Source: Thermoplasmatota archaeon
GTDB lineage: Archaea; Thermoplasmatota; JAKEGO01
Reading direction: 5' to 3'
NCBI GenBank assembly: GCA_028279595.1
Contig: JANQNK010000015.1
Span: forward strand, 1 to 55,371
Length of the DNA stretch: 55,371 bases
A program made the translations under genes and the position numbers. The notes beneath the pieces were generated by a model that worked only from the letters and a program-made list of their open reading frames with translations, did not search any database and was not told where the DNA came from. Of this stretch, positions 286 through 50,300 are shown one piece after another. The number at the start of each line of letters is the position of its first letter. Positions within the stretch are counted from its first letter, which is position 1.

Positions 286-1511
286 TCAACGAGCATTCCG
301 TCGACCTCGCCGTCATCGGGGCCGGCGCTGCCGGGCTCGCTGCTGCCGTCGCCGCAAAGCAGGCCGGTGTGGAGAACATCATTGTCATCGACCGCGAGCA
401 CTCCCCCGGTGGGATCCTGAAGCAATGCATCCATCCCGGCTTCGGGCTCTACCGTTACGAGGAGGAGTTGACTGGTCCTGAATACTTCCAGCGTCACGCC
501 ATGGACGTCATCCATCAGGGGATCAAGGTCATGTCCGACACGATGGTCCTCGACATGACGGCAGAGAAGGAACTGATACTGTCGAACACAGACGGTATCG
601 GGATCCTCAAAGCCAAGGCGATAATCCTCGCAATGGGATGCCGCGAGAGGACCAGGGACAACATCCTCATTCCGGGAACCAGACCTGCAGGGATATTCAC
701 AGCAGGTACTGCCCAGCAGATGATGAACGTCAGGAACCTTATGGTCGGGAAGAAGGTCGTCGTTCTCGGTTCTGGAGACATAGGGCTGATAATGGCCCGA
801 AGACTTGTGCTCGAGGGCGCCGAGGTCCCTACTGTCCTGGAGATCATGTCCTTCCCTGGAGGACTCCAGCGAAACATCACCCAATGTCTGGATGACTTCG
901 ATATCCCGCTTCATCTGAGCACGACAATTATCGAGATCAAAGGCAAGGGTCGGATATCTTCGGTCGTCGTCGCGACCATCGGCAAGGACGGAAAACCGCT
1001 CGAGAGGACAGAGAAGGAGATCGAGTGCGACACGCTTCTGCTCTCTGTCGGATTGATCCCCGAGAACGAGCTATCTCGAGGCGCTGGGGTCGAGATCGAC
1101 AACGTTACTAGCGGACCTATTGTCGACGCCAACTTCATGACCTCTATCCCAGGGATATTCTGCTGCGGTAACGCCCTCCACGTCCACGACGTCGTCGACT
1201 ACGTCTCCGACGAGGCCGAGGAGACGGGTTACGCCGTCTCCAGATGGCTTAGGAACGACGTCGAGGAGTTCGACGTCGATGTCAAGGCCGGCGACGGGAT
1301 CCAGTACGTCCTTCCTCACAGGATCGGACGTAGCAGTGCAACGCTCAAGATGAGAGTGACCGAGCCGGGACGCGATATCTCCATCGTCGGAAGGTCAGGT
1401 GAGGACGAGACATTCAGGAAGAATCTGCCGAGAGTAGCACCCTCAGAGATGATCATGATCGATGTTGGTAGAATTACTGGAGACGTACTCACTGTGGAGG
1501 TGGTCCGGTGA
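282..1511 (+). CDS. NAD(P)/FAD-dependent oxidoreductase (pyridine nucleotide-disulfide family, partner of the GlpA-like enzyme)
   Basis: Motifs VIGAGAAG, GGILKQCIHPGFG, ILAMGCRER, VLGSGDIG and GIFCCGN. The true start is ATG 282 (SD GAGGTG, coupled to the upstream stop), not 45. Confidence 0.9.
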   Translation: MINEHSVDLAVIGAGAAGLAAAVAAKQAGVENIIVIDREHSPGGILKQCIHPGFGLYRYEEELTGPEYFQRHAMDVIHQGIKVMSDTMVLDMTAEKELILSNTDGIGILKAKAIILAMGCRERTRDNILIPGTRPAGIFTAGTAQQMMNVRNLMVGKKVVVLGSGDIGLIMARRLVLEGAEVPTVLEIMSFPGGLQRNITQCLDDFDIPLHLSTTIIEIKGKGRISSVVVATIGKDGKPLERTEKEIECDTLLLSVGLIPENELSRGAGVEIDNVTSGPIVDANFMTSIPGIFCCGNALHVHDVVDYVSDEAEETGYAVSRWLRNDVEEFDVDVKAGDGIQYVLPHRIGRSSATLKMRVTEPGRDISIVGRSGEDETFRKNLPRVAPSEMIMIDVGRITGDVLTVEVVR

Positions 1512-1873
1512 CCAGGATGATCTGCATCGTCTGCCCCATCGGCTGCGAGATGGAAGTCACGATGGAGGGCGGGGTCGTCCTCGTTAAGGGGAACCAGTGT
1601 CCGAGGGGCATCGATTACGCTCAAGCCGAGATGACAGATCCGCGTAGAACATTGGCAACTACTGTCTACGTCCTCGGAGGAGCGAGACCTCTTGCGAGCG
1701 TCCGCGTCGACAACGTTCCCAAGGATGGAATGATGGAAGCGATGGCTGCCATAAGGAAGATCAATGTCCCCGCACCAGTGATAATGGGACAGGCCATCGC
1801 CGAGATCGAAGTGAGAGGGGAGATCTTCCCCGTTGTAGCTACATCGACTGTTCCCGGATATTATTTCGTCTGA
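1508..1873 (+). CDS. DUF1667-family CxxC metal-binding protein
   Basis: ICIVCPIGC...GNQCPRG...DPRRTLATTV. GTGA overlap with the upstream gene. This is the usual third gene of this oxidoreductase triad. Confidence 0.85.
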   Translation: MTRMICIVCPIGCEMEVTMEGGVVLVKGNQCPRGIDYAQAEMTDPRRTLATTVYVLGGARPLASVRVDNVPKDGMMEAMAAIRKINVPAPVIMGQAIAEIEVRGEIFPVVATSTVPGYYFV

Positions 1874-1927
1874 TCGGATGACATTCTAGAGGGATAGATT
1901 CAAAAAGGGTATGTCTCAGGGAACGTC

Positions 1928-2071
1928 ATGGGCAGGACGTATGTTGAGATTGATCTCGAATTGAAGGAGATACTGTTGTCGATAGGATTGGAGGGAGAAT
2001 CCATCAATGACATCATCTGGAGGATAGTTGACGATTCAGGTTACACTGAACTGATGGTAGACATGGAATGA
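1928..2071 (+). CDS. Small ribbon-helix-helix / antitoxin-like protein (47 aa; not in the ORF track)
   Basis: MGRTYVEIDLELKEILLSIGLEGESINDIIWRIVDDSGYTELMVDME shows the strand-helix-'GES..D.I.R'-helix pattern of archaeal RHH proteins. Confidence 0.55.
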   Translation: MGRTYVEIDLELKEILLSIGLEGESINDIIWRIVDDSGYTELMVDME

Positions 2072-2086
2072 TCGATAGGGTCTCGC

Positions 2087-2737
2087 TCAATTCTGAGGCA
2101 TCTCTGGTTTGACCATGATGCCAATTTCGGAGAGTTCGAGCGGCAACGGGTCCACCCGATGCTTGCTACCCCTCAGCTTGACGATCTGGATGCTCCTCAT
2201 GTTGGAGTCGATATCGAGCATGATGATGCCGTCGGAGACGTTCATGAGGAGCTGACTCGGTTCAGGAGCGACGACGTATACCATGCATCCGAGCTTCGTC
2301 AACGTCGAGATGCTATTGATCAGGAACGGTCCGAAGTTCGGTCCGAGCATCGCCTCGAAGAGGCCGACGTCGTCGAAGCAGACGCGGTCGAACTGTCCAG
2401 TGCTCACGGTCTCCTGTAGCATGGAGACGATGTCCGCGTTCGGGTTGTTGACGACCTCTGCAACGTCGATGATCGTGAAGTCTCCCTTGTCCATCACTTC
2501 CTTGTCGTAGAATCCCATTCTCTCAAGGTAGGCGAGAGAAACTTCCATTGGTTCTCTCAACGGAGTGACGTAGAGTACCTTCTCCTGGTTCCTGCAGGCG
2601 AACATCAATGATTGTAATACGAAAGTGGTCTTGCCAGCGCTTTCATCTCCCGTGATGAGAAGAGTTGACGGTCTGTAGAAGCCACCACCAAGGGCCGAAT
2701 CCAGGCCCGGAACCCCCGAATCGACGAGTTTGAGCAT
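2087..2737 (-). CDS. KaiC/RAD55-family RecA-superfamily ATPase (single domain)
   Basis: SGVPGLDSALGGG, Walker A GDESAGKT, Walker B VCFDD and C-terminal RSIQIVKLRGS. Start placed at MLKLVD; a TTTTTATA box lies just upstream on the minus strand. Confidence 0.85.
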   Translation of the reverse strand: MLKLVDSGVPGLDSALGGGFYRPSTLLITGDESAGKTTFVLQSLMFACRNQEKVLYVTPLREPMEVSLAYLERMGFYDKEVMDKGDFTIIDVAEVVNNPNADIVSMLQETVSTGQFDRVCFDDVGLFEAMLGPNFGPFLINSISTLTKLGCMVYVVAPEPSQLLMNVSDGIIMLDIDSNMRSIQIVKLRGSKHRVDPLPLELSEIGIMVKPEMPQN

Positions 2738-2889
2738 ATTGTTAAAACAGGAGTGGATTATAAAAAGGTTGCATGGTGGTTTGCTTCTTGGTTGGATTTG
2801 GATTTCTACGGGCCAGAGTCCTTTCGGTTGGACTCTGCAGCAGCCCGGAAGGATTAAAAGGGTCATAACTAATTGTAATTGGGGATTAA

Positions 2890-5598
2890 ATGAGAGGTGT
2901 CAATAAAATACTGCCAGCATTCATATTCATACTACTCATGTCCACACATACCTTTGTACTTGTAAGTGAGACAAATAATATTGAACATGAATCGCTTCCA
3001 ATCGGAAGTCCGATATCTGAAGATTCGGATGGAGATGGGATACCGGATGATGAGGATCTAATTGACGACGGAAATGCGGTTCTAATATTCTCAATTGATT
3101 ATTGTGAGATAGATCAAAATGCTGATGTTTGGTCAGACGGAGATCCCTATTTCAAGGTCTTTTTCGACCTTGATAATAATGGATCGTTTAATAGTGAAGA
3201 ACAATGGAAATCCAAGATGTTTGAGAATGTAGTTGTAGTCGATGATGAAGGATTTGATGATCTTGGCGCTTGGTGGATCGAAATCGGAATTGAAGATGAT
3301 ATTGACGAGCTATATTTCTGGATCTATGCATACGATGATGATAACGATGGTAATTATGAAGTTGCGGATATCAATCCTAATGCGAGTAGAACTTCAGTAG
3401 ATTTTATTTATGAGATCTCAGAATCGAATGATAATCCGGATAGGTATTACTTAGATGGGAGTGAAGATGGGCAATCGGAAATTGATGCATATATCGAATT
3501 TTCATTCCGTCTCAGGAAAGGTGTCACAATTGAAGAGATCTCTCCATCCAGTGGAGTTATATCAATGAATGAGGGTGAAACAACCTCACTCTCTATTGTT
3601 GATCCATTCATCCCATATTATCTTCCAGACACCTTTACCTATCTCTGGCTTTTCAATAACATATCAAGTAGTGATTGGATACCAATAAACGATACTGATT
3701 CGAACAATCAAACATTTGAATTGTTCGCAAACTACGGTTCTGCTGGAACTTATTTTATCGGTTGCATTATGTATTTCGAATCCTCACGCTACAATTACTG
3801 GTATTATGATATCTGTTTCTGGGAAGTGACAATTATCCATAATAATTCCGTTCCAGTAGCATCAATTACTATCGATTCAGATTATCTCCATCAGTTTGAG
3901 GACATTTCATTCTCGGGGCGGAATTCATTCGATCTAGATGGCGATGAATTGAATTACACATGGGATTTCGGCGATGGTTCAATCGGTTACGGAGTTGACG
4001 TTACGCACGTCTATACGATACCTGACGAATATTTCGTTAAATTGACAGTCGAAGATGACGAACTTGCCACGGATATTAAATTAAGGCCGGTGACGATCGA
4101 GCCGATCGATCTTTCTGCAGCAGAACATTGGGGCACAATTTCAAACGGGAGCACCGTTACCCTGAATACCGATTATAATAATTTCAATGTGGATATGGTA
4201 TCTGAATCGGTATTGATGCCCTTACCATTCGGATATACACTATCGATAAGAACGGGCTTCAAATCGACCATGTTACTAGAACATACTGGCCGTTGTACCT
4301 ATAGGCTGGAAATTAATGAGGATAAACGAGATGTGGAATTTGAAATACAATTGCTAAATAAGACTGATTATTACGAAATTTGGTATCGACCCTCCCTGCA
4401 ATTCACAATATCGATAATCGATTCAAATGAACAAGAGACCGAATTATGGTCAAATGAAACCTCTATTCCGTTGATGAATAACAATCAAGGACTCGATAAT
4501 GATGGAGAACCATTGATATCGATACCTACACTTTCACACGGAAGTGTAGACATATACACCTGGGACCAAATGAAACGAATCTACAAATCAAACGGTACAA
4601 TATACAATCACATTGGATCAATTAATCTTGGTACGATACCGGTTAATATTGCTCAAGTTGACATCTTTCAATTCATCAAAGCCTTAACGGGTTCAAATCC
4701 AATTACTAACACAATAATCAACATCGGAAACTTCTTTACCAACGTCTATATCGAGTCAGACCTTCTACTTGACACACAAATTCAGGACAGATTGGGTTTT
4801 TACATTCAGTCAACTGGGGACTCAAATTTAGAGAACGATTTTGTTTGGTGTGATAGCATTTCATCACATCCATCGTTCACTGTTTCCGGATCGAAAACTG
4901 ATTCAAAGTTCTATGGGATTATGAAGACTAAGTCCGAAGCTTCTCTTTCGCTCGGAGTATACTTCCATCTCAATCTTACTGAGAGTGGAAAAACAGCATA
5001 CGGATTTTACTCAACAATACAGGATAAAGGATTGATAATAGGTCTTCTCGATACTTTGCTAGAGGTCATTGAGACTGGATCTCTACCAAAGAAGGATTTC
5101 GTGATCAGAGAACCTCTCTGGGAATCCGGAGAAATTCAATCACTTCAGGATAGCACAGTATGGTATTGGGATTACCTCGATTATTCACACGAATTCATAA
5201 ATCATGCACCGGTTATCACAGTTTCTTCACCGTCCGAAGCAGTCTACGAGTTAAATGATACAATTCTTCTTGATTGGGACTCGTCTGACGAGGACGGAGA
5301 CACAATCGCTTATGAGGTATATTTAGATACCAACGAGAATCCCACGACTATAGTCGCGCAGGGTTCATCCATTGACTCATATGAAACTACAGATCTAGAA
5401 CCGGGAACATACTATTGGAAGGTAGTCGCGGATGATGGGGAATCTAGAACAGAATCAGAAATATATTCCTTCCAGATTCAAGGTGAATCCGCAAATAAAG
5501 ATAAATCCTCGGGTACACCAGGATTCGGTATAATAACCGTAGCCCTAGCTATGTCGCTATTAGTTATCGTCCAAAGAAGGAAATTCCGAAACAGATGA
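2890..5598 (+). CDS. Secreted PKD-domain surface protein with PGF-CTERM anchor
   Basis: Signal peptide, DSDGDGIPD Ca-binding-like motif, PKD motif FDLDGDELNYTWDFGDG, FN3/Ig-like domain near the C-terminus, and a TPGF + hydrophobic helix + RRKFRNR tail. AT-rich. Confidence 0.85.
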   Translation: MRGVNKILPAFIFILLMSTHTFVLVSETNNIEHESLPIGSPISEDSDGDGIPDDEDLIDDGNAVLIFSIDYCEIDQNADVWSDGDPYFKVFFDLDNNGSFNSEEQWKSKMFENVVVVDDEGFDDLGAWWIEIGIEDDIDELYFWIYAYDDDNDGNYEVADINPNASRTSVDFIYEISESNDNPDRYYLDGSEDGQSEIDAYIEFSFRLRKGVTIEEISPSSGVISMNEGETTSLSIVDPFIPYYLPDTFTYLWLFNNISSSDWIPINDTDSNNQTFELFANYGSAGTYFIGCIMYFESSRYNYWYYDICFWEVTIIHNNSVPVASITIDSDYLHQFEDISFSGRNSFDLDGDELNYTWDFGDGSIGYGVDVTHVYTIPDEYFVKLTVEDDELATDIKLRPVTIEPIDLSAAEHWGTISNGSTVTLNTDYNNFNVDMVSESVLMPLPFGYTLSIRTGFKSTMLLEHTGRCTYRLEINEDKRDVEFEIQLLNKTDYYEIWYRPSLQFTISIIDSNEQETELWSNETSIPLMNNNQGLDNDGEPLISIPTLSHGSVDIYTWDQMKRIYKSNGTIYNHIGSINLGTIPVNIAQVDIFQFIKALTGSNPITNTIINIGNFFTNVYIESDLLLDTQIQDRLGFYIQSTGDSNLENDFVWCDSISSHPSFTVSGSKTDSKFYGIMKTKSEASLSLGVYFHLNLTESGKTAYGFYSTIQDKGLIIGLLDTLLEVIETGSLPKKDFVIREPLWESGEIQSLQDSTVWYWDYLDYSHEFINHAPVITVSSPSEAVYELNDTILLDWDSSDEDGDTIAYEVYLDTNENPTTIVAQGSSIDSYETTDLEPGTYYWKVVADDGESRTESEIYSFQIQGESANKDKSSGTPGFGIITVALAMSLLVIVQRRKFRNR

Positions 5599-14317: not shown

Positions 14318-16363
14318 ATGTCCATTATCAATGCTCAGTTGTCTGCTGTCGCAGTGGCATTCATCATGCTCATGACAGTCCCGACCATCGCTGGGATCGA
14401 TATGAACTCATCCGAGATCGGATCAGATATCCAATCCGATGACCGAACCTGGACCTCCGAAATCCCTCTCCAAACACCGAAACCAGCACCCACAACCCAA
14501 CCCTGGTGGGAACGCACCTCCCGCGACTCTAACCGCAACAGCATCGTCGACTCACTCGAATCCCTCACGGATGACACCGAGGAACCGCTCATCATCTCCT
14601 ACTCACGAAAAATTACACCGACCGACCTCGATTCCCTCGCGGAGCTGGGGATCGAGGGAGGCTACATAGTCAAATCAATTGACGCAATCAGCGTCGGACT
14701 CAGACCTATCTCAATCATCCCTCAACTGACAAACCTCGACGGAGTAGTAATGATAGAACGCTCCGGTATGGTCCATCTCTACTCCGACGTGGCCACAAGG
14801 AATCTCAAAGCACGTGGCTCGGAAGAATACTCACCGTACAGCGCCTGGGAACAGTTCAACTACACCGGTTACGGCATCAACGTCGCCGTCACCGACACGG
14901 GCATTGACGACATGCACCCGTCACTAGAATACAAACAGGTAGCAGGATACGACGCAGTCGCACCCGAATCCAACGAGGACGGCACCACGGATCCCGACGA
15001 CAGGAACGGTCACGGTACGTCCTGTTCCGGGATGGCAACGGGTACCAGCAAGGGAGATCCGGACCTCGCCTACATGGGTTCTGCACCCGGAGCCACCCTC
15101 GTCGACGTACAGATAGGAACGGATATCGGCGCAGGTCCCTTCGAGAACTATCTGCTTCCGACGACCTACTACGATTCCGCCCTGCGCGGGATGGAATGGG
15201 TCCGTGACAATGCCGACACGGAATGGAGCTGGGTCGAGGAGGAGCACTACGGTATCGATATTCAGTCGCTCTCATGGGGCATCACCTCTCACGAGGACGG
15301 CGGTTCCGACGGTTCGGACCCGTTCTCCCGGCTCATAGATGAGATAGTCGAGGAGGGCGTCGTGTGCGTCGGAGCTGCCGGCAACGACGGTCCGAACAAC
15401 GACGGGTTCTCGGGCATGTCCGCAACGAGCGAGGGCATCGTCGTCGGCGCGACCGACGACCTGAACACGGTCACCAGGGACGACGACATCATTGCGGGAT
15501 ACTCGAGCCGGGGTCCGCGCAGGGACGACGGCGACGGCTACCCCTACGACGAGCTCAAGCCCGACGTTTCAGCTCCTGGAACTTCGATCTGGAACACTGA
15601 ACCGTGCGTCGATTCCAACCTCTGCTACGGTGACGCGGAAGGCAATGGTTACGAGAACAGGGGCTCCGGCACGTCCTATGCGACCCCCGCTGCCGCGGGC
15701 GTCGTGGCGTTGATGATGGAGGCGAACCCTGAGCTGGAACCGGCCCACATCAAGCAGATCCTTCACATGACGTCTGAAAGGCGTGGTGAAGCCACCCTTC
15801 CGGACATAGATCCGTTCTGGAACAGGGACTTCGGCTACGGGATAGTGGACGCCTACGAGGCGGTGAAGGTCTCCGTGGAGCTCCAGGGACAGGACCTCCG
15901 GTCGTTGGACGTCGAACTGCAGGCCTACATCGTGAACATAACCGAGACGAAGAAGGGCGCCGTGATCGAGGGACTGGCGTGGGCGAAGGTCGACGAAGTG
16001 GAGATGATCGAAGTCAGTATCGACGGGAAGGACTGGGTCGAGGTGGAGTACGCGGAGGACACATACGGCACCGGCGAGTTCATCGACTGGCGCTACGAGG
16101 TCAAGAAGTCCAAGCTCGGATTCACCGGGAACCACACGGTCCACGTCCGCGCGGTCAACGGTAACGATCACTCGATACCTCACTCTGAGGACTTCTACGC
16201 GAAGGGAAGCAGCGGAAGCGGGGAGGACGATGGTGACGGACTCCTCGGACTCGGTTCCGGGTCAGATTCGATCCTCGGATTGCTGATCGGCGTTGTGATT
16301 CTCGTCGGGGTCTTCTATTTCGTCTACAAGAAGCCGAAGAAGACGACACAGAACGGCCAGTGA
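14318..16363 (+). CDS. Secreted, C-terminally membrane-anchored S8 (subtilisin-like) serine protease
   Basis: Signal peptide; catalytic motifs VAVTDTGID, HGTSCSG, AAGNDG, KPDVSAPG and GTSYATP; Ig-like domain; TM helix followed by KKPKK. Confidence 0.92.
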   Translation: MSIINAQLSAVAVAFIMLMTVPTIAGIDMNSSEIGSDIQSDDRTWTSEIPLQTPKPAPTTQPWWERTSRDSNRNSIVDSLESLTDDTEEPLIISYSRKITPTDLDSLAELGIEGGYIVKSIDAISVGLRPISIIPQLTNLDGVVMIERSGMVHLYSDVATRNLKARGSEEYSPYSAWEQFNYTGYGINVAVTDTGIDDMHPSLEYKQVAGYDAVAPESNEDGTTDPDDRNGHGTSCSGMATGTSKGDPDLAYMGSAPGATLVDVQIGTDIGAGPFENYLLPTTYYDSALRGMEWVRDNADTEWSWVEEEHYGIDIQSLSWGITSHEDGGSDGSDPFSRLIDEIVEEGVVCVGAAGNDGPNNDGFSGMSATSEGIVVGATDDLNTVTRDDDIIAGYSSRGPRRDDGDGYPYDELKPDVSAPGTSIWNTEPCVDSNLCYGDAEGNGYENRGSGTSYATPAAAGVVALMMEANPELEPAHIKQILHMTSERRGEATLPDIDPFWNRDFGYGIVDAYEAVKVSVELQGQDLRSLDVELQAYIVNITETKKGAVIEGLAWAKVDEVEMIEVSIDGKDWVEVEYAEDTYGTGEFIDWRYEVKKSKLGFTGNHTVHVRAVNGNDHSIPHSEDFYAKGSSGSGEDDGDGLLGLGSGSDSILGLLIGVVILVGVFYFVYKKPKKTTQNGQ

Positions 16364-38661: not shown

Positions 38662-40494
38662 ATGCGGGGGCATATGCGAATATTTGTAATCGGCATGATA
38701 GCATTGGCGATCTTCATGACGTTGATTGGGACCGTCGAATCCACAGATTGGATAGTCGACGACGATCCCCATTCGAACAGGGATTTCAGGTACATACAGG
38801 ATGCGATCAATGCATCCTCGAGCGGTGACAACATCAAGATATACAACGGGACGTACAGGGAGCATCTCACTGTGAACACCAGGGTGTACATCCAGGGGAA
38901 CGGAACGGACCAGACCTTCATCATCGGCAGGGGTGATGCCGATGCGATCATAGTGACGGCGGACGAGTGCGTGTTCTGGATGCTGAACATCACCCCCGGG
39001 AGCGGACTCAATCTGACCGGTATCTACGTCTACAGGTCGGATGACGTCGAGATACTGGACTGCTCGATACATCATTGCATGATGGGGGTCTACTACTACG
39101 AGTCCTCGCACCCGTGGACGGAGGACCTCGTTCTCTACGACAATTCCGGTGATGGGATCAAGATCCACTACAGCCCGTATTGGTTTGTGGATTCCGCATC
39201 CATCTGGGACAACGGCGGGTTCGGTGCCTATTCCGCCGGCAGTTCCAACGGGACGATGGTCAACACCGATTTCGTGCGCGACGGCTTGTACATCGACGGG
39301 AATATCAACGACACAACATCACACTGGATCGAGGACAACACAGTCAACGGCCGGCCTCTATACTTCATCAACAACACCCAACAAGCGAGTATACCCAAGA
39401 ACCAGGGCCAGTATATACTCGCAAACGCCGATTTTGATTACATCGTTGACACCGTGATAACAGACACCGACGTCGGGATCCTTCTCATCCACTCGTCCAG
39501 GATCGGGATCAGACGAGTTGAGATATTCAATGTGATGACCGGAGTGATCTTCGACAGGACCACGGAGTCGAATATAACCAACTCCGGGATCAATGACACC
39601 ACCGATTGCGGGATCAAGGTCCTTGCCTCTACCCATTGCTTCATCGAGAACACCACCATCAACGACACGACCGACGGGATCAAGGTGGACGGTGAGACCT
39701 TCACCGAGGTTTTGAACAGGACATCGGGATACTCCATCTACTACGAAGGCCATCACCTCCTCATCAACGACTGCCACATATTCAATCTGTCCGACGACGG
39801 CATCGATGTCCACACTATGAACTACACGCTCATCAACTACACGAGGATCAACAACACATACGGGAACGGTATCCTCATACACGAGAACACCCACAATTCC
39901 TCGATCTATCGGTGCGCCATCCTCAACGTGAGCGATGACGGGATCCTGTTATTCAACGAAGTGAGCAACAACACCGTGGCCCGCTGTGACGTCTCCAACT
40001 GTTCCGGCAGGGGGATCGTGATGACGACCGATGCCAACAGCAACAACATCACGAATTGTTCCGTCCACAACAACACTAATCCCGGGATAATGGTCCTTTC
40101 CTCGGATTACAACAACATCACCTACAACAACATCTGGGGCAACGGGAACTATGGTGTTAGCCTTCTCGGGGCCTTCGGGACCCGGGTCCATCACAACAAC
40201 TTCGACGCAAACGGTGCAGGGACCTCTCAGGGCAACGATAACAACGGTCTGAACCATTGGGACCAGGGCGGGGAGGGCAACTACTGGGACGACTATGGAG
40301 GCACAGATGGTAATGGAGATGGGATCGGTGACACGGCCTATGACATCGACGGCGCCGGTAATGACACTGACGACTATCCATTGATGGACCCTGGCGACAC
40401 CTCCGCGCCGAGGAAGATCGCCGAGTTCACGATACTCGTCACCATATCCATTACCCTCTTCGCCCTCCTAGCCATCGGAAAACGAACGAGGTGA
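38662..40494 (+). CDS. Parallel beta-helix surface protein with degenerate PEF-CTERM, array copy 11
   Basis: WIVDDD..IQDAI N-cap, NTVNGRPLY insert, GNYWDDY..DGNGDGIGD C-cap, and APRKIAEF-TM-KRTR tail. Confidence 0.88.
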   Translation: MRGHMRIFVIGMIALAIFMTLIGTVESTDWIVDDDPHSNRDFRYIQDAINASSSGDNIKIYNGTYREHLTVNTRVYIQGNGTDQTFIIGRGDADAIIVTADECVFWMLNITPGSGLNLTGIYVYRSDDVEILDCSIHHCMMGVYYYESSHPWTEDLVLYDNSGDGIKIHYSPYWFVDSASIWDNGGFGAYSAGSSNGTMVNTDFVRDGLYIDGNINDTTSHWIEDNTVNGRPLYFINNTQQASIPKNQGQYILANADFDYIVDTVITDTDVGILLIHSSRIGIRRVEIFNVMTGVIFDRTTESNITNSGINDTTDCGIKVLASTHCFIENTTINDTTDGIKVDGETFTEVLNRTSGYSIYYEGHHLLINDCHIFNLSDDGIDVHTMNYTLINYTRINNTYGNGILIHENTHNSSIYRCAILNVSDDGILLFNEVSNNTVARCDVSNCSGRGIVMTTDANSNNITNCSVHNNTNPGIMVLSSDYNNITYNNIWGNGNYGVSLLGAFGTRVHHNNFDANGAGTSQGNDNNGLNHWDQGGEGNYWDDYGGTDGNGDGIGDTAYDIDGAGNDTDDYPLMDPGDTSAPRKIAEFTILVTISITLFALLAIGKRTR

Positions 40495-40502
40495 CGCCGA
40501 GG

Positions 40503-40533
40503 CTGGGAAGGGAGCTTCATGCGACCCTTCCAG
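40503..40533 (+). terminator. Possible stem-loop after the array
   Basis: CTGGGAAGGG...CCCTTCCAG inverted repeat immediately after the copy 11 stop; no strong U-tract follows. Confidence 0.3.
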
Positions 40534-40634
40534 AGGCTGTCCAGAAGGACCCCCAGACAGAATGATCAACCCTATCCCCACTCGTAATGTTAACCTCCGC
40601 AAACATTTTAATAGATGATAGCATTGCACGATTT

Positions 40635-40830
40635 GGAGGAGGAAGAGGTAATAGCTGCTCCGGTACTCGACAGGGGACTAGGGTTGTGGAGTGGTGGATG
40701 AATTAAAAACCGACCAGCCTTACCTCGGTCTGTGCACGCCCTTCAAAGGGCATGTCTTCTTGTCGTCGTTTCCGGCCACCCCGACGTGTGTCGATAGAGG
40801 CCTTCGAAGAAGAAAAGAGGGGGAGCATGG
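40635..40830 (+). promoter_or_regulatory. Structured 5' leader, copy 1 (candidate cis-regulatory RNA)
   Basis: Starts 29 nt after the TTTTAATA box at 40606. GAGGTAA (40645) pairs with TTACCTC (40720). It shares ordered sequence blocks with 41180-41369. Confidence 0.6.
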
Positions 40831-41088
40831 ATGGAAGCCAACGATGACGCGACGTCCGACGATCGGACCACCCAACGCACACGGATAGGCCAGTCCGTCC
40901 ATTCTCTCAGATCCTGCCTCGACCGCATCGACGACTGTTTCCGACCGGAGTCCGGGAGCCAGATACGCAACCTTCATCTCCAGAGGTTACATCCTGGACA
41001 CCACCCCGCGGAGCAGCCGGATGACCTGAACGAACGCCAACCTTCATCGGCCGGGGCAGGATCAATGACACACGAAGAGGAGCCCTGA
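40831..41088 (+). CDS. Hypothetical small hydrophilic protein (85 aa)
   Basis: Strong SD (AGGGGGAG) at the end of leader copy 1 and a hairpin plus T-tract after the stop. No recognisable motif. Confidence 0.4.
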   Translation: MEANDDATSDDRTTQRTRIGQSVHSLRSCLDRIDDCFRPESGSQIRNLHLQRLHPGHHPAEQPDDLNERQPSSAGAGSMTHEEEP

Positions 41089-41130
41089 GAAAAGCTCTCA
41101 TCTTTTCGGGTCTTTCCTTAAGTTTTTCTC
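41083..41130 (+). terminator. Hairpin plus T-rich terminator-like element
   Basis: CCCTGAGAAAAG...CTTTTCGGG followed by TCTTTCCTTAAGTTTTTCTC. Confidence 0.45.
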
Positions 41131-41179
41131 GTTTGAAGCGTTCGACAACGCTTTTATACCTCAAACCAATCCAGACAAC

Positions 41180-41369
41180 GGAGGAGGTAGAGGTAATGGC
41201 CACTTCGATACTCGATAGTAGGGGGATCGTATGTGGAGTGGTGATAGAGTAACACTAACAGCCAGACCTCTAGCCCTAGCCACGTACCGGACGATGCCGG
41301 TGGATGGACATCGTTCGATGATTTGTGTGTCGACGCAACCGAGCCCATAGCAGAAAGGGGGAGCGTGAA
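41180..41369 (+). promoter_or_regulatory. Structured 5' leader, copy 2 (candidate cis-regulatory RNA) of the giant gene
   Basis: Starts 28 nt after the TTTTATA box at 41152. TAGAGGT-AA-TGGC pairs with GCCA-G-ACCTCTA (41261-41272). It ends in AGGGGGAGC-N-ATG. Confidence 0.6.
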
Positions 41370-44300
41370 ATGGACAGGAAGCAGAAATTGGTCGTTGCGT
41401 TCGCATTGGGCATTCTGATAGGGACGGGTTTCCTATCGATGTTCGTGGCGGACGGGAGCAGGAATTCGCTGGACGACGCCCACGTCGTGGACACGGTCTC
41501 GTTCAAGACCCCGGTCGTCCGGCAGCCAGGATCGCCCACGGTGCCGATGTTCTATCTATTCGAGACGGACAACGGCGTATTGCTGGACTACCGGCAGGCC
41601 GTGATGATGGGACTGTCCCGCAAGGACGTCTGGGTGCAGGACCGCGAGGGCGATCCATTGGGAAGGTACAGGATCGAGGAGCGAGATGACGGCACGTACG
41701 ACCTCGACATATGGGTCGAGGACGACGCGAGGATCGAGATGGTCGGCATGGCCGAGAGGCCGGACGACCTCCTGGTGCGCATCGACTCCGAGATCAGCCC
41801 CGCGCAGCGGGAATGGTACAGCCTGTTCCGCGACCTGGGCGTGGAGAAGCAGTTCGACGAGCACGAGCACTTCGTCACAGACGTGGTGTACGTTGATCCC
41901 GTCGAGATGGACCGGGCGACACTGACGCTCCCCCTGAAGGGCGAGCCCGGTTCCATCTGGTTCTCCGAGGACTTCGACCTCATGACGTTCTCGGGACCGG
42001 ACTGGGAGGCGACGCGGACCCCGTTCACCGTCGATAACGGCTTCGTTACGTTCGAGGTGGACGGGTTCAGCGCATATGCGGTGTCTGACAGGCCGATGCC
42101 CGAGGACCCGCGACCGGAGCACTGGACCGACGAGCCATATCCTGATGGTACCGATGTGGATACGACGACAGAGCCGAGCGACGTCGACGCGGACAGGTCG
42201 GTCCGCCTGATAGGACCCGACGGCGAGGTCCTGGCCGACAGCGCCGACAACGACGGCGGACCTCTGTTCGTCGCACCCGACGAGACCCTGATGGGCTCCG
42301 GGACCATCGAGGACGACGTCGTCGTGGACGGCGTCTTCAGCCCGGGGAATTCCCCCGGTATCGTAACGATCCAGGGAGCGCTGACGATCTCGAGCGGGGA
42401 TTCCGACACGATAGATGACTCCTACACCCCACCGACCGGCTCGGGGGACACCGTAGGAACCCTGCACATCGAGGTCGGCGGACCGGACCCTGGACCCGGC
42501 ACACCTACCGACAACGGCTACGACCAGATCAAGGTCCAGGGGAACATCAACCTCGGCGGGAAGCTGAAGGTCGACATCATCAACGACTACGACCCGGCGG
42601 TCGGGACCAAGTTCGACATCCTGCTGGTGGATTCGGGGTACACCGGGGTCCTATCGGACGACGATTTCGCGTCCTCCGAGGGGCTCTTCGGCGAACTGCC
42701 CGGGGACAAGTACTTCGAGATAGTGAAGGACACGACCAACAAGAAGGTCTACCTCGAGGTGAAGCAGATCGGCGGAGGAGGGTTCCAGCTGAAGGCGCTG
42801 GGGACCCATGCCATCGGGATCGCAAAGGTCCTTACTGATTACTTCGACGACACCACCTATACAGGCGAGCTCGACAACATCGACGTCCTAGGACTGGTCC
42901 ACGGGAGCGCCGACTTCACGATCACCAAGGAGGAGGTCGACATCGACATCGACGGGTCCACCGGAACGACGGACGACCAGTACGACGACGCCACCCTCAT
43001 AACCGTATGGCTGAGCGACCTCATGCTATACATCGGTAAGGGCACCATCGGACTCTACGTCACGAGCGGGAAGGTCGGCATAGCCAGCCTCAAGGAGTCG
43101 GGAGGCAAGTCGTGGCTGGCCCTCGTCGTGGACGATGTCGGCGGAACGATCACGATCAAAGGGGTCAAGGGCGACTTCGCGGACATCACCGTGAAGCTCA
43201 ACAAGGCGAAGGGCGGCGCCTCCGCGCTGAACTGGACCCAGTCCCTGAACCTCGACGAGGACTCGGACTATGGTGACGGCGACGGCGACCTCGTCGACTT
43301 CGACGGCAGCGGCACCACAACGGACGACCGTGTCACGTACACCACCGAGTACCTGGAGGTCTCGGGGGACATCACCGACCTTGACGTGCTCAAGATAGTC
43401 ACCGGAAGCGCCAGTTTCGCGTTCGAGCAGCAGCCGGTGGACGTTAACACCGACGGCGACGCGGACTTCGAGGTGACGACCGGCGACGACCTCGACGACG
43501 CCACACTCATGATGATATCGTTCGGGATAACCGACGTCTTCGTCGGGGTGCCGGACGGCGCGGGATTCAAGCTCACATCCGGTTCACTGGCCCTGGCGAC
43601 CATCAAGCCGGACGACGACACCGACGACCGCTCATGGATGTCCCTGAGCGCTTCCATCGGGAGCGCCTCCCTCACCGGGATAGAGGGTCTCTCGGCCAGC
43701 GGCAGCCTGGCCGTCGAGATCAACAGGGCGTTCGACGGATCGGTGGTCGCGACGGGAGACGCCATCGACTGGGGCGAGGACATCAATCCCGACGCAAACT
43801 CGACCGACGGCGACACCTTCAGCGGTGATACCGTCGACATCGGCGGTCACACCATGGAGCTCGACGGCGACTTCCTGCAGGCTTCAGGCTCCCTGACCAT
43901 CGACCTCTTCGGATTCGTGTCTGGGACGGCCGGGTTCACCTTCCAGCAGCAGCTCGTCGACGTCAACCTCGACGGCAACACCACCTTCGACTCCGCCGAC
44001 GACCTAGACGACGCCGACCTCGTGATGCTGAAGTTCGACGTCACTAGCGTCAAGATCGGAGTCGAGAACGGCGCCGGCTTCTCCCTCGCCAGCGGAATGC
44101 TGGCCATGGCATTCATCACTCCATCGGACACGGGAACGGACAACAGGTCGTGGATGGCCATGAGCGCCGCCATCGGTACGGCGTCCCTTACCGGCATCGA
44201 GGGGCTCAGCGCGAGCGGCAGTTTCGATCTCGAGATCAACAGGGCGTTCGCGGGAACGGCCGTCTCGGCGGGCGACGCGCTCGACTGGGAGTCGGACGTC

Positions 44301-47300
44301 AACACGGCCGCCGATTCGGTGGACACCGAGACCTTCTCATCCACCACTGTCAGCATAGGAGGGCACAACGTCACTCTCGACGGCGACTGGCTCCAGGCGG
44401 ACGGCACCCTCACGATAGACCTCTTCGGGTTCGTCAAGGGAACGGCAGGCTTCATCTTCCAGCAGCAGCCGGCGGACGTCAACCTGGATGGCAATACCAC
44501 CTTTGACACCGCCGACGACCTGGACGACGCCGACCTCGTGCTCCTCAAGTTCAACGTGAGCGACGTCTTCGTCGGGGTCCCCGACTCCGTCGGCTTCTCC
44601 CTGGACAGCGGGATGCTCGCGATGGCCGTCATCACGCCGGCCGACACGACGTCCGACGACAGGTCATGGCTCGCGATGAGCGCCGAGATCACCGCGGCGT
44701 CCCTCACGGGCATAGAAGGACTGATCGCCACCGGCGGGTTCGACATCGAGATCAACAGGGCCTTCGACGGGTCGGACGTCGCCACCGGCGACGCTCTCGA
44801 CTGGGAGGAGGATGTGAACACCGAGGCCGATTCAGTCGACACGGAGACCTTCGACGCCACAGCGGTGAGCATCGGCGGTCACGACATCACGCTCGACGGT
44901 GACTGGCTCCAGCTCAGGGGCAACCTCACGCTGGACCTGTTCGGCTTCGTCAAGGGCACCAGCGAGTTCATCTTCCAGCAGCAGCTGGTGGATGTGGACG
45001 CGGACGACTCGGGCGACTTCGACACCGGCGACGGCGACCTCGAGGACGCCGACCTGGTGCTCCTCAGGCTGGACATCACCGACGTGTTCGTCGGTGTCCC
45101 GGACAGCATCGGATTCTCGCTGGACAGCGGAATGCTCGCGATGGCCGTAGTCAAACCGTCGGACACCACGTCGGACGACAGGTCGTGGGTCGCCATGAGC
45201 GCCTCGATCACCACGGCGTCCCTCACAGGCATCGAGGGGCTGACCGCCGACGGTGACCTAAACGTCAAGATCAATCGCGGCTTCTCCGGCACTTCGGTCG
45301 TTGCCGGAAGCGCCCTGGACTGGAGCGACAACATCGACATCGATCCAGGCACGCCCGCGGTGTTCACCCCGTCCACCGTGAGCATCGGCGGACACACGAT
45401 ATCCCTGGTGGGCGATTACCTGGAGGCGTCGGGCGAGCTCGTCATCGACCTCTTCGGGTTCGTCTCGGGGACGGTAGGCTTCACATTCATACAGACGCAG
45501 GTCGACGTGGATGTCGACGGCGGCGACTTCGAGCCGACCTACGGTAACGACATCGACGACGCCGACCTCGTGATGCTCGACCTGACCGCCTCCGACGTGT
45601 TCATCGGCATTCCCGGAAGCATCGGTTTCAAGATGGAGAGCGGCGGCCTGGCGTTCGCCATCATCAAATCCGCGGACACCGGCGACGATCGCAGCTTCAT
45701 GACGATGTCGGCCTCCGTCACCAACGCCGAGCTTGATGGCATCGAGGGCCTCACCCTCGAGGCGGAATCCCTCGTCCTCAAGATCAACAGGGCGTACGAC
45801 GGCACGACCGTCGACGAAGGCGCGGCCCTCGATTGGACATCCGACGTCGACATCGAGGCGAACGCTACAGAGGGCTCGCCGCTCGTCCCGGACGAAATCG
45901 AAGTGGGGACCACGACGCTGACCCTCGACACGGACTTCCTCCTCGTATCTGCCTCGGGGACGATAGACATATTCGGTTTCTTCTACGCCGACGCCTCGTT
46001 CGCATTCGAGAAGTCCGATACCACCGTCACGGTCACCGACGGGTCGGACACCGACACCGTCGACGTGGATTACATGACGGTCGGTGTCGAGATCGACAAC
46101 GCCTTCGCCGGCGTGAACGGTCCCTACTGGACCGACGACGGCGACGGCGTCATGCAGGACGCCGAGCTGAACACCACCTCGATGGGCCTTTCGCTCACCG
46201 GGGTCGAGTTCGCGCTCGTCCTGATGTCGGTCCAGACCGACGACCCGGACAACGAGAAGGACCTGAGGACATGGACCGCCATGTCAGCGGTCGTTGACGA
46301 GGTCGCGTTCGTCGGCATCGACAACGTCGTGGTCGAGGGCGGCGCATACGTCAGGATCAACGAGTGCGGCGGAGGCATCCTCGAGAACGTGGGAGATCCC
46401 GATCTCGACGAGGTCAATGACAAGGTCGTGGACTTCCCCGACAGCTTCACGGGAAGCGGCATGGAGGTCGACACTGGAGACGGTACCCCCATCGTCATCG
46501 ATTTCGACACCAAGTACCTGAACGTGGGCGGCTGGCTCCAGGTATCCCTGGACGGCTTCTTCTACTTCGACGGCTCGTTCGCCTTCGAGAGCTCATCCGA
46601 AGAGGTCGATCTCGTTAGGAAAGATACCAACGGTACAGTGGTCGAGAGCGAGACCGATGTACTTGTGGAGACCCTCACGGTCGGAGCCGAGGTCAAGCAC
46701 GCCTTCGTTGGCACCGACGGTCCGTACTGGACCGGCGACGCCGACGAGGACGAGGAGATCGACGATCCGGGCGAGGTCAACACGAACGCGACCGGGCTCT
46801 CCCTCAGCATGTTCGAGTTCGCCCTGGTCCTGATGAAGGTCAAGGGCTCGGACCCGGACACGCAGACCGACCTCAGGAACTGGACGGCGGTCACCGCGTC
46901 GGTCGACGACATTTCTCTGGTCGGCCTTCCCAACCTTAGCATCTCGGGCAGCGCGGCCTTCAAGATCAACACAGGCGGCGGAGGGACCCTGGCGACCGTA
47001 GGGGACGATGTCTACGACGAGGAGAACGACATGGTCGTCGACTTCCCGTCCAGCTTCGTGAACCCGTCCCCGCCCCACGGCATGCCCGTCGACACGGGCG
47101 ATGGCACGCCCATCCTGATAGACTTCGATAACACCTATCTCTTCGTGGACGTACAGGGCACCCTGACGGTCGGAGGCCTGGAGCTTGTGGGCGGGTTCGC
47201 CTTCGAGCAGGATGGCGCGGACATCGGTGTCGCCGCCAACTTCTCCATCGAGTTCGAGTCCGGCGGCGAGGTCGTCTTCGGCTTCTCAGTGGACGGCAAG

Positions 47301-50300
47301 GTCCTCATCAAGGGGGACGGCGCGGCGATGCAGCTCAGCATGTCCATAGACGTCGGGACCTCGACCGGTCCCTTCGAGTTCGATGGCGCAGGCACCTTCT
47401 ACATGAACACAACCGGTGATGATGTCACAACGATAGCCGGAAAGGCCGTCGACCTCGAGATACCTGACGGGAAGACCAGGGTCCTCAAGGTGTCAGTACC
47501 GATATTCAAGGTCAGGATCGGCGATTACGTCACGTTCGAGGCGGGCGACATCGTTCTCGACCTGACGGCAACCGGCACCGAGCACCTCATCGTGTTCGGC
47601 GACGCCGGTCTGTCGATCAAGTTCGGCTCCGGCATATCGTTCCTCGACGGAATGGGCGGAAGTGTGAGCAACTTCGCCGTAAGGGCGGACTTCCTGCCGA
47701 TCCTCCAGCCGAACTTCGCCGCGTCGCTCACGTTCGGCGACGTTTCCACCACCGACTTCGACCTTCCCATCCCCATCAAATTGACGGAGATCGGCGTCAG
47801 GTTCAAGGACGATGCGATCACCACGGAAGGGGTTCTGGAGAAGCCCTGGCTGTTCGTCCTCACCCTCTCGGGAGGTCTCGACGGCTCGGGCGGATTCCCC
47901 ATAACCGCCCTCGTCGACGGCCTCGAGGTCGACATAGGCCTGCTCGTCGAGGGCAAGTTCCCGTTCACGAAGATCGACGGGGTCCAGTTCGGCATCGACG
48001 ACATGAGCCTCGGCCCTGTGAAGGTCGGGGGGATGTTCACGTTCGGCATCGTCGAGATAACCGATCCCGCCGACAGTTCCAAGAAGAAGACGGCGTTCTA
48101 CGGAGGCATCGAGGGCTCGTTCAAGTACAGCGGCATCGGCGGCGGTTTCAAGCTCTACGTCTGCGAGCGCGGACCCCTCGTGGCGACGCTCTCCGTCGGC
48201 GGTCTCGTCCTCGGACCGACCGGGTTCGTACTCGGCGTCGAGGACGGCGGCTTCGCCTTCGGCGGGTCCCAGTGGCCCTCGCCGGACGGTCCCGAGGACC
48301 TGTTGACCAATCCGGTGTTCCAGGACCCGTTCGACACCTCGCTGCCGGCGATCAAGAAGCGGGTGGAGGAGGTCCTCGCCCTGCCGGGCATCGGCACCAC
48401 GTTCAACGAATCGTTCACCATGGCGGCCACCGGGACCATAACGAACCTGTACGTCCAGGGTATGATCTCCGGAAATGTCACTGTCGCGATGAACATCGGA
48501 TGGCCCGATTCCATCTCGGACCCGGTCCCCGATGTCAAACTCCTCATCAACGGGACCATCGACCTCCTCGGAATGCCCTTCGGCTACGCCGGGTTCATGA
48601 TAGACCTCTCCGACCCGCTGGTGCCGATGTTCGACTTCGCATTCCAGGTGCCCGCGCCGGGGAATCCCCTCAGCTTCCTGTTCCCCTCGAAGACGACCAT
48701 CCTTGCAAGACTGGACACATCGGGGATAATCGAGATGCCCGTCGTGGGCTTCTCCACATTCCTCAGCAGCACAATAGAGGGCGCTCTCGAGCTCTTGCTC
48801 GAGGGCCTCGCCGAGGAGCTGGAGAGGAACCACGCCAGTACGCTCTCGAAGCTGATACTCGACGCCGACCACGACGGAACCGTGGACACGGCCGAGGACA
48901 TGGAGGTCATAGATGCCGAGTTCCTAGTGGACCGTCTCATCGGTAACGACGATCCTGTCGTCAAGGGGATACTGCCGACGTCATTCGAGGATCTCGAGGA
49001 TCTCACGTTCGACGACCTCGTCATAGCAGTGGAAACTATCATCGAACTCGTTCCCGCACTCATCTCCCAGGCCACCCTGCTGGCGAACGACCCCGAGGAG
49101 AGCTTCGATCTCGGCGAGTTCCTGCTAGACCTCGTCGATGTCCTGATAGATGCGGCCATCGACGGTCTCGAAGCCGGGTGGGAGACCTTCGACCCCTCGC
49201 TCGAGATCACTGCCCAGATCCAGCCCATGATCTTCGGGATGCCACTGGGACAACCGGACGTGGACGTCACCCTCCGCCTGGACAAGACAGCGCTCTCGTT
49301 CGAGTTCGCAGGTTCGATACGTGATCTGCTCCTGCAGACGGTCTTCTCCCAGTTCGGCGGACAGATCCTCACGATGCTCCCCGCAGGCCTCGACGGGATC
49401 ACCGACTCTTCCTACTTCTACTTCAAGCTAGACATGCCCACAGGGCTCATCGACGCGATAATCTCGGGCCTCGCCGACCCGGATGACTCGAACTCCCAGA
49501 AGCTGATAGACATCTTCGTCGACATCATCAATCCCTTCACCGGGTGGGAGGTGCTGTTCGCCAGCACCATAACGTTCTTCGGATTCAAGCTCGGCTCGGT
49601 GTCTGGCTTCATGTTCGGACCACAGGACACCACCGATCCCGACTTCGATGAGACGACGTTCGGACAGCGCGTGGTGAACCTCGACCCCGACGACGACGGC
49701 GAGCCCAACGAGGATCTCGTCGAGTACTACACAGACGTCGTGAACATCATCCCCGTCAACTCTAACGACCATTACGAGGACATCGTCGAATACGGCGGAC
49801 TGCTCCTCACGGGCCAGCTCTACATGCCGGACATCATCGCAGATCCCGTCTCGGTCATCACAACGAAGCCCGAATGGGCGTCGGCCACCGTCGAACTTAC
49901 GAGCGGAGAGTTCCTGACCATAACCGCGACGGAGCCGGGAACGAACTACAACAACGTCAGCATCCGCTTCGTCGACGAGGAGGGCATCGCGGGCAGCGAG
50001 GTTGCCGAGTACAACGATTCGAATATCGCCGACAAGCGTCTCAAGATAACTGTGGAGGATGGGGTCAGCACGGCTGAGGACATCATCGCTGCCATCGACG
50101 CCGAGGGAACCTTCACGGCATCGACCCCGAGCATGTCCAGCGTGATCGACATGGCCACCGTGACCACGGTCGATACCTCCGGGGGCTCCTCCGGGAAGGC
50201 CAACACGACCTTCGGCTCCACCACGAACGATTTCGAGCTGTATATCGAGGCAGCCTCGTCCGGAACACAGTACGACGATGTCGAGATCGTGTTCGACGAC

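Follow-up and report, generated by a model that had tools for sequence, protein, structure and literature searches.

The closest described parallels to the element reported here are bacterial leaders that stabilise messenger RNAs (mRNAs) from the 5' end. Among them is the STAB-SD of Bacillus thuringiensis cryIIIA, reportedly described by Agaisse & Lereclus in 1996. The ompA and ermC mRNAs are stabilised by 5' stem-loops and by Shine-Dalgarno (SD)-like sequences that have no start codon (PMC7509114). We analysed a stretch of 55,371 nucleotides (nt) from a Thermoplasmatota archaeon (contig JANQNK010000015.1 of assembly GCA_028279595.1; the whole stretch is called the window below) in which about 190 nt, here called copy 2 (41180-41369), lie directly before a giant surface-protein gene. 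Copy 2 is predicted to be the true 5' untranslated leader of the giant-gene mRNA. A diverged copy of its first part, copy 1, is found farther upstream.

As with the ompA 5' untranslated region (UTR), 5' stem-loops and STAB-SD, the leader is long and precedes a gene of the kind that encodes an abundant or large surface or secreted protein. An SD-like tract near its predicted 5' end is fully complementary to 16S ribosomal RNA (rRNA) and has no conserved start codon, and the 5' end is predicted to be helical. Unlike the bacterial stabilisers, this leader is archaeal, its SD-like tract is predicted to pair with an anti-SD-like tract inside the leader, it has no sequence homology to them, and it carries two further conserved hairpins with invariant loops. 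Antitermination leaders (EAR RNA, put, ops/RfaH, LoaP) are also conserved leaders that stand before unusually long cell-surface transcription units, but the 14-kilobase (kb) gene studied here has no evident intrinsic terminators and there is no Rfam match to EAR. We know of no archaeal equivalent of the processive antitermination leaders.

The leader has homologues, is under purifying selection, begins at the predicted transcription start site (TSS), has the potential to pair and belongs to no known family. The leader is therefore, we conclude, probably a new RNA with a regulatory or stabilising role. The explanation that we favour, at about even confidence, is that it acts in cis on mRNA stability or translation through its SD/anti-SD-like 5' domain. 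That the predicted promoters are active, that the RNA folds in vivo as modelled and that it works by stabilisation or through translation is what we infer from these features.

Conservation and predicted structure of the giant-gene leader

Relatives of the N-terminus of the giant protein are few. Orthologues are encoded on three metagenomic contigs recovered via the protein database, L044, L045 and L052 (77%, 82% and 86% best-local BLASTP identity, respectively), and G001 encodes a member of the same family (55% amino acid identity). L044 and L052 have the same synteny as the window: a beta-helix gene is followed by a post-stop hairpin that is conserved, and ~360 nt of intergenic sequence then lead to the giant gene. 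Each has one leader of the copy-2 type, promoter region included; L045 retains only the 3' 140 nt. The whole leader is 86% identical between copy 2 and L052 and 75% identical between copy 2 and L044, with 91% and 89% identity in the first 66 nt, as compared with 70% and 45-47% at four-fold degenerate sites of the adjoining coding sequence (CDS). Thus, the leader is under purifying selection, and these comparisons put its strength close to that of the selection acting on the protein. For domain 1 (nt 1-95), identity to L044 and L052 is 89-91%. An 18-mer (TTGTGTGTCGACGCAACC) is identical in copy 2, L052, L044 and L045, and a 12-nt loop block (GCCRGTGGATGG) is near-invariant in the four orthologues, with one change, in L052. 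A preliminary description of this DNA had proposed a long non-coding leader starting at the predicted TSS and had looked to further homologues for its confirmation; the leader model is supported, and the orthologues supply homologues under purifying selection.

Beyond these sequences, a covariance-model search of 101 relatives returned no true leader homologue and a pattern search of about 400 other Thermoplasmatota genomes did not find the leader. DNA searches of 40 relatives with the whole region gave chance matches only, and scans of metagenome contigs by protein pattern and by leader pattern gave no match. Four DNA sequencing runs yielded only the source contig and near-identical strain fragments, with no informative variants in the leader. 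Upstream of two more distant homologues of the giant protein (L046 and L053, 47-48% identity) the DNA is unrelated to the leader. One covariance-model match, in G019, was rejected as a false positive: it lies inside a coding open reading frame (ORF) that encodes ...KEEVEVID... and that we take to be NifX-like. The Rfam scan of the whole window gave no matches at gathering thresholds, in agreement with the earlier remark that no known riboswitch class was recognised. With Rfam 15 at E≤10, the one match in positions 40550-41420 (15 bits) lies outside the element and is due to chance; there was no match in L044 1560-1880. The leader thus looks like a new sequence family, so far in one narrow lineage of Thermoplasmata.

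In G001, a weak match to model R1 falls at the expected place. There, on the minus strand of contig L040 (2558-2800), ~215 nt separate a TATA-like box from the ATG. The putative leader has a purine-rich GGGGGAAGGGTCAC start and contains GTAGGGGGAT, ATGTGG and CACCAGCC in partly different order. This region may be a distant homologue of the leader.

The leader would consist of three parts. In domain 1, the 5'-terminal AGGAGGU would pair with an internal anti-SD-like CCUC(C) and so close a long irregular hairpin; a hairpin with a conserved GCCRGUGGAUGG loop (P3) would follow, and then an invariant small hairpin (P4) and the real ribosome-binding site (RBS). The closing helix (P1) is predicted to join a purine-rich 5' end to a CCUC tract 85-93 nt downstream in four of the four full-length sequences, with probabilities of 0.66-0.99. 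The 3' arms of P1 (UUACCUC, ACCUCUA, GCCUCC and ACCUCC) each have a perfect partner of 6-7 base pairs (bp), in a different register of the GGAGGU-AGAGGU tandem, and they out-pair shuffled arms (P 0.03, 0.006, 0.04, 0.02 and 0.12). In minimum free energy (MFE) and partition-function folds, GAGGUAA/UUACCUC and GCUG/CAGC of copy 1 have a pair probability of ~0.66 (0.64-0.67 across the predicted helices of its domain 1), and UAGAGGU/ACCUCUA and UGGC/GCCA of copy 2 reach 0.99 and 0.87. The claim that pairing is kept in the face of sequence change holds insofar as the proposed helices appear in these folds, but they are retained via register shift and not by column-wise compensation.

The strands of the inner helix (P2) are TACTCGA and TGTGGAGTG, with one U-G/C-G change. 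An alternative CACUUC/GGAGUG pairing is equally compatible, and in copy 1 it shows three one-sided changes of wobble type (CACUUC to UGCUCC). Copy 2, L052, L044 and L045 have different P3 stems, each of which is complementary across its two arms. In three pairs both partners have changed, and the three compensatory pairs are those against L052. At the duplex level, pairing between the native P3 arms exceeds that of shuffled ones (P 0.012, 0.012, 0.0025 and 0.079). This comparison was used in place of an arm-swap test by whole-segment MFE, which was uninformative because CCGG...CCGG offers an alternative hairpin.

Column shuffling gave consensus-fold z-scores of -1.75 for domain 1 of the orthologues (-2.47 with copy 1 added) and -1.83 for P3-P4. 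Across five sequences, 84% of cells pair, versus 35-44% with the 3' partners slid; G-U accounts for 13% of paired cells, and such pairs can form only in plus-strand RNA. The modelled structure is likely correct in outline and is unproven in detail. Readings as a C/D-box or k-turn RNA were rejected, as neither a D box (CUGA) nor a conserved C box is visible by eye.

The 3' end of the genome's own 16S rRNA is GGAUCACCUCCU. Leader positions +3 to +9 (AGGAGGU), counted from a 5' end that is placed from the TATA position only, form a duplex with it of -12.2 kcal/mol, equal to that of the true SD. Only in copy 2 does the codon 7 nt past this tract read AUG; in L044, L052 and copy 1 it reads AUA. The SD-like 5' tract therefore has no conserved start codon, and its P1 partner is an anti-SD look-alike. 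By direct reading, the CCUC tract pairs weakly (4 bp) with the true SD. Two coding readings of the leader were also rejected. An 18-codon upstream ORF (uORF) at ATG 41196 is ruled out by ATA in L044, L052 and copy 1. A small protein on the minus strand (64 and 75 codons, sharing DPPT(I/V)EYRSG.YLYLL), in a frame that is open across the leader of both the window and L044, is ruled out by codon-position differences in the order 1>2>3 (13:9:4), a 1-nt frame-breaking indel and a stop in copy 1.

A diverged copy heading a probable separate unit

The shared blocks GGAGGAGGWAGAGGTAAT, TACTCGA, TGTGGAGTGGTG, CAGCC..CCTC, GTGTGTCGA and AGGGGGAGC are all present in both copies, in the order first reported. 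The best local alignment of the copies spans 64 nt from the predicted start at 75% identity. It scores 45, as compared with 19.7±2.2 (maximum 30) in 300 dinucleotide shuffles, and in a blastn search of the whole 2.29-Mb genome the match has an E-value of 1.8e-4. For the part between about nt 100 and the ATG, the score of 21 is not significant (19.6±2.4 when shuffled) and identity is 41-46%; the exceptions are GTGTGTCGA and the G-rich ribosome-binding tract. What had been described as a duplicate of ~190 nt is thus a module of the first ~65-95 nt with three short blocks, the rest being at random level. Conservation between the paralogues begins exactly at the predicted TSS: 14 of the 29 positions in the TATA-to-TSS spacer are identical, as are 48 of the next 66.

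In its first 66 nt, copy 1 is 71-73% identical to each of copy 2, L052 and L044 (88 bits with model R1), and elsewhere 41-46%. The equal distances indicate that this block was retained while the remainder was randomised. The genome has no third copy. Copy 1 (40635 to ~40830) appears to be an older, diverged paralogue of the first ~95 nt of copy 2, and its retention of only the first module argues for a function of the module itself.

The hairpin of copy 1 is weak, has a U-rich tail and is followed by ATGTCTTCTT only. Its ATG at 40827 opens 6 codons before a stop. Downstream is an orphan ORF of 85 codons (ORF85), which has no homologue in G000-G002. Compared with 1.84 billion representative proteins it had, beyond itself, only repeat-inflated matches. 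Its third-position GC content (GC3) is 0.66 versus 0.76-0.86 in neighbouring genes, and its codon log-likelihood ratio is -0.22 versus +0.7 to +1.4. DNA and translated comparisons showed no similarity that would make it a remnant of the giant-gene N-terminus. ORF85 is probably non-coding or lineage-specific. The sole non-self match with E <1e-10 is P0008 (486 amino acids, metagenomic), whose sequence is translated from a unit of 168 nt (56 residues) repeated 7-fold. The match (E 9.6e-21) was rejected because it is due to the tandem repeat: a single unit aligns over 22 residues only, a similarity that is probably chance or composition.

Oligo-T is a signal for termination in archaea, and the T4 and T5 runs beyond ORF85 are likely an archaeal terminator of the copy-1 unit, as read from the sequence. 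Between the post-stop hairpin and the giant-gene promoter, the window thus has a unit of ~545 nt that is absent at this locus in L044 and L052; it contains the copy-1 promoter, the 5' module, the small hairpin with U-rich tail, ORF85 and the T4/T5 runs. Control of the giant gene by copy 1, as in the preliminary description, is not borne out, since copy 1 heads a separate ~490-nt unit that has an orphan, non-genic-looking ORF and ends at T4/T5. The copy-1 transcript is predicted to be short and separate and is probably non-coding. The region would therefore comprise two transcription units that open with the same RNA module.

Promoters and genomic setting

Coordinates of the features are collected in Table 1. 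The block GGAGGAGG lies 28-29 nt past the start of each TATA-like box (40606 and 41152), i.e., at 40635 and 41180, so that both of the positions given earlier are right. The start codon of the giant ORF is at 41370 and not at 41371. By direct reading, no orthologue has a TATA-like element between the mid hairpin and the giant-gene ATG. With no such element nearer to the ATG, the promoter at about -215 is the one that most likely drives the giant gene.

Table 1. Features of the leader region and giant gene in the window.
Feature	Position	Strand	Details
Copy 1 TATA-like box TTTTAATAG	40606..40614	+	Direct reading; resembles TTAATA/TAAATAA of neighbours; puts TSS at ~40635
Copy 1 domain 1	40635..40729	+	5' SD-like tract; P2 strands TACTC/GAGTG; closing helix GAGGTAA 40645-40651 / TTACCTC 40720-40726
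Copy 1 hairpin GCCCT-TCAA-AGGGC, then U-rich tail	40738..40751	+	Pair probability 0.97; flagged as terminator-like
Copy 1 blocks GTGTGTCGA (40787-40795) and AGGGGGAGC (40818-40826), ATG 40827	40787..40829	+	Shared with copy 2 at similar offsets
ORF85, orphan ORF of 85 codons	40831..41088	+	Downstream of copy 1
T4 (41103-41106) and T5 (41123-41127) runs	41103..41127	+	Direct reading
Upstream element TTCTCGTTTGAAGCGTTCGACAA	41126..41148	+	Nearly identical in L044 and L052
Copy 2 TATA-like box TTTTATAC	41152..41159	+	Direct reading
Copy 2 domain 1	41180..41274	+	5'-terminal AGGAGGT; P1 TAGAGGT 41188-41194 / ACCTCTA 41266-41272; P2 TACTC 41209-41213 / GAGTG 41236-41240
Possible uORF, 39 codons	41231..41350	+	Starts at conserved ATGTGGAG, preceded by AGGGGGATCGT
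P3 hairpin CGGACGATG/CATCGTTCG	41288..41317	+	Loop block GCCGGTGGATGG 41296-41307, GCCAGTGGATGG in L052; pair probability 0.97
P4 hairpin TTGTGT-GTCG-ACGCAA in 18-mer TTGTGTGTCGACGCAACC	41323..41340	+	6 bp; predicted in folds
SD GGGGGAGCGTGA and start codon ATG 41370	41357..41372	+	Duplex with own 16S 3' end, -12.2 kcal/mol
Giant surface-protein gene	41370..55371	+	>4667 codons, open to window end; signal-anchor-like N-terminus

Directly 5' of the giant-gene TATA is a 23-nt element, TTCTCGTTTGAA(G/C)CGTTCGACAA, which is almost invariant among the window (41126-41148), L044 (1580-1602) and L052 (786-808). It is a candidate transcription-factor site.

The leader region is flanked on one side by an array of NosD/beta-helix surface-protein genes (Pfam Beta_helix and NosD; last stop at 40494) and on the other by the giant frame. 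Most array genes (starts at 14318, 18099, 21898, 23623, 31800, 35200 and 38656) have TATA-like boxes (TTAAATAA, ATAAATAA or TTAATAT). These lie 25-33 nt before the start codon and no SD is present, so these genes are leaderless or have very short UTRs. This spacing bears out the earlier remark that a long leader is unusual beside near-leaderless neighbours.

A hairpin (GGGAAGGGAGC-N6-CGACCCTTCC) occurs right after the stop of the last beta-helix gene in the window (~40509-40535), L044 (~1481-1509) and L052 (~683-710). It is kept in L044 and has two changes in the 5' arm in L052, and is likely a 3'-end or terminator structure. In L052, the giant-gene orthologue (1031-3137) is called as three overlapping ORFs (1031-1555, 1537-1716 and 1713-3137), which points to frameshifts, assembly errors or a broken copy.

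The host genome is a metagenome-assembled genome of a Thermoplasmata archaeon, 2.29 Mb in size and 86% complete. The full window stretch was found in a single sequencing run, a coral metagenome.

Function of the leader and competing explanations

If the leader acts in cis on its own mRNA, a folded or ribosome-binding 5' end could shield a very long transcript from 5'-end-dependent decay. By analogy with the bacterial case, the block would be to archaeal 5'-3' exonucleases. RNase J and aCPSF2-type 5'-3' exonucleases are the candidate archaeal nucleases. Alternatively, the folded or ribosome-bound 5' end could set the rate of translation initiation, as in bacterial 5' stabilisers, and proteins may bind at the invariant loops.

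Several observations weigh against this interpretation. P1 would compete with ribosome binding at the 5' SD-like tract, so a stabiliser is not uniquely implied, and 60 nt of such highly conserved primary sequence could also be a site bound by a protein or one that acts at the DNA level. With five sequences, covariation does not reach significance (the three double-sided pairs observed are matched in 88 of 500 shuffles), and the RNAalifold covariation term is unfavourable (+0.67). The consensus fold of the full leader has a z-score of -1.04, and single-sequence MFE z-scores are unremarkable (+0.46, -1.27 and -0.09). L044 breaks P2, and the inner helices vary by lineage: L044 and L045 carry a 3' strand AUCGAGUGGC, which in L044 forms with GCCACUUCGAU a 10-bp helix that is impossible in copy 2 and L052. 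G001, at 55% amino acid identity, has a long intergenic region with no convincingly alignable leader (model R1, 8.8 bits, E 0.59).

Attenuation and antitermination had both been suggested for the leader. There is no T4 or longer run in the leaders of copy 2, L044 and L052; an attenuator is disfavoured because leaders of the copy-2 type have no T run >3 and a weak hairpin with a U-rich tail is confined to copy 1. Along its sense strand (window 41370-55370, 14 kb), the giant gene has no T5 and one T4, versus 1.8 and 10.3 expected from base composition, and so presents no obvious intrinsic terminators to override. The lack of oligo-T in the leaders and its near-absence from the giant gene thus argue against attenuation and leave no obvious need for antitermination. 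Avoidance of archaeal oligo-T terminators could account for the scarcity of T runs, as could the 86% GC3 of the giant gene.

A riboswitch-like element that senses a ligand or protein, with domain 1 as an aptamer closed by P1, is unlikely in our view. GGAGUG would alternate between its CACUUC and UACUC partners and so switch downstream exposure and giant-gene expression. Like riboswitches and Rfam cis-leaders (e.g., archaeal TPP and fluoride), the leader has a conserved non-coding domain between TSS and RBS in which a closing helix encircles a strongly conserved, aptamer-like core. The two mutually exclusive pairings of GGAGUG fit all copies, including the three wobble-compatible one-sided changes of copy 1, and the module is reused before a second transcript. 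The riboswitch of the preliminary description nevertheless fares poorly. There is no Rfam model or match even at E≤10, and neither the covariation nor the MFE z-scores (+0.46/-1.27) are significant or exceptional. We identified no expression platform, with no terminator in the leader and no clear partner to sequester the SD. In the genomes searched, the motif does not recur beyond one gene family and one diverged paralogue in one narrow lineage. No metabolic or transport gene is linked to it, and a surface adhesin would not readily be expected to respond to metabolite sensing. In a broader form, domain 1 would be a new archaeal sensory RNA (a riboswitch, or responsive to proteins or ribosomes) that gates production of a giant adhesin-like protein in an uncultured marine Thermoplasmata, with the SD/anti-SD mimic helix as its basis and reuse before two transcripts; we regard this, too, as improbable.

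We likewise doubt that control is exerted by a uORF starting at the conserved AUG of AUGUGGAG (41231). As in leader-peptide and uORF control, this start codon has its own SD-like tract and its frame ends near the main RBS. The preceding AGGGGGAUCGU is a near copy of the main RBS, and AGGGGGATCGT likewise resembles AGGGGGAGCGT. Translation of ~40 codons through P3 and P4, with the stop 0-20 nt before the main start, would couple or gate giant-gene translation or keep the leader covered by ribosomes; translation would matter and the peptide would not. The AUG and SD-like tract are kept in copy 2, L052 and L044 (copy 1 has UUG there), and the frame is open for 39, 40 and 48 codons, ending in L044 at UAAGAUG, which abuts the main start. 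However, neither peptide nor frame is conserved as in known leader peptides, and a terminator/antiterminator pair is missing. Substitutions favour no codon position (6:6:6 and 12:11:10), the second half in L044 is in another frame, and the copy-1 version has 5 codons. An open frame of 40 codons is expected by chance at an estimated ~0.24 in this base composition, and the AUG sits within the predicted P2/P2b helices.

Regulation at the DNA level, in which transcription regulators bind the +1 to +66 block and the element before the TATA while the RNA itself is without function, is quite unlikely. In archaea, repressor sites are often located at the TSS or downstream of it. The 23-nt upstream element is kept in three orthologues, and it is mostly the primary sequence that is conserved, informative compensatory changes being few. 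Yet the ~190 conserved nt far exceed usual operators, conservation between the paralogues begins exactly at the TSS, and G-U pairs and complementarity-preserving changes in P3 make sense only in plus-strand RNA.

It is very unlikely that each copy instead yields a stand-alone small RNA of ~100-140 nt ending after the mid hairpin, with the giant gene expressed by read-through or from another start. In both copies a stable hairpin does occur at nt ~104-140, with U residues in the stretch after it; that of copy 1 is terminator-like, and copy 1 has no credible gene downstream. In leaders of the copy-2 type, however, no T4 or longer run follows the hairpin, conservation runs on through P4 to the RBS, and the interval from hairpin to ATG has no TATA-like element in any orthologue. 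We attach just as little weight to an absence of function, with copy 1 a decaying remnant of tandem duplication and the leaders alike by recent ancestry or recombination. The extra ~545-nt unit of the window, missing at the locus in L044 and L052, would fit, as would the unexceptional folding energies. Against this, the leader is far more conserved than four-fold sites of the adjacent CDS, conservation is patchy, with invariant blocks adjoining variable but complementary stems, and the copy-1 block stands at 71-73% identity with its remainder at random level.

In summary, we favour a cis-acting leader RNA. Its practical value is limited, with four or five sequences available, all of them metagenomic. 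Archaea have few known cis-regulatory RNAs, and uncultured Thermoplasmata, in which most genes look leaderless (the neighbours here among them), have almost none. Little is understood of how archaea preserve very long transcripts and keep them translated. A strongly kept leader of ~190 nt points to post-transcriptional control or protection of an mRNA of >14 kb, and the pairing of an SD-like 5' tract with an anti-SD-like tract provides a concrete, testable hypothesis.

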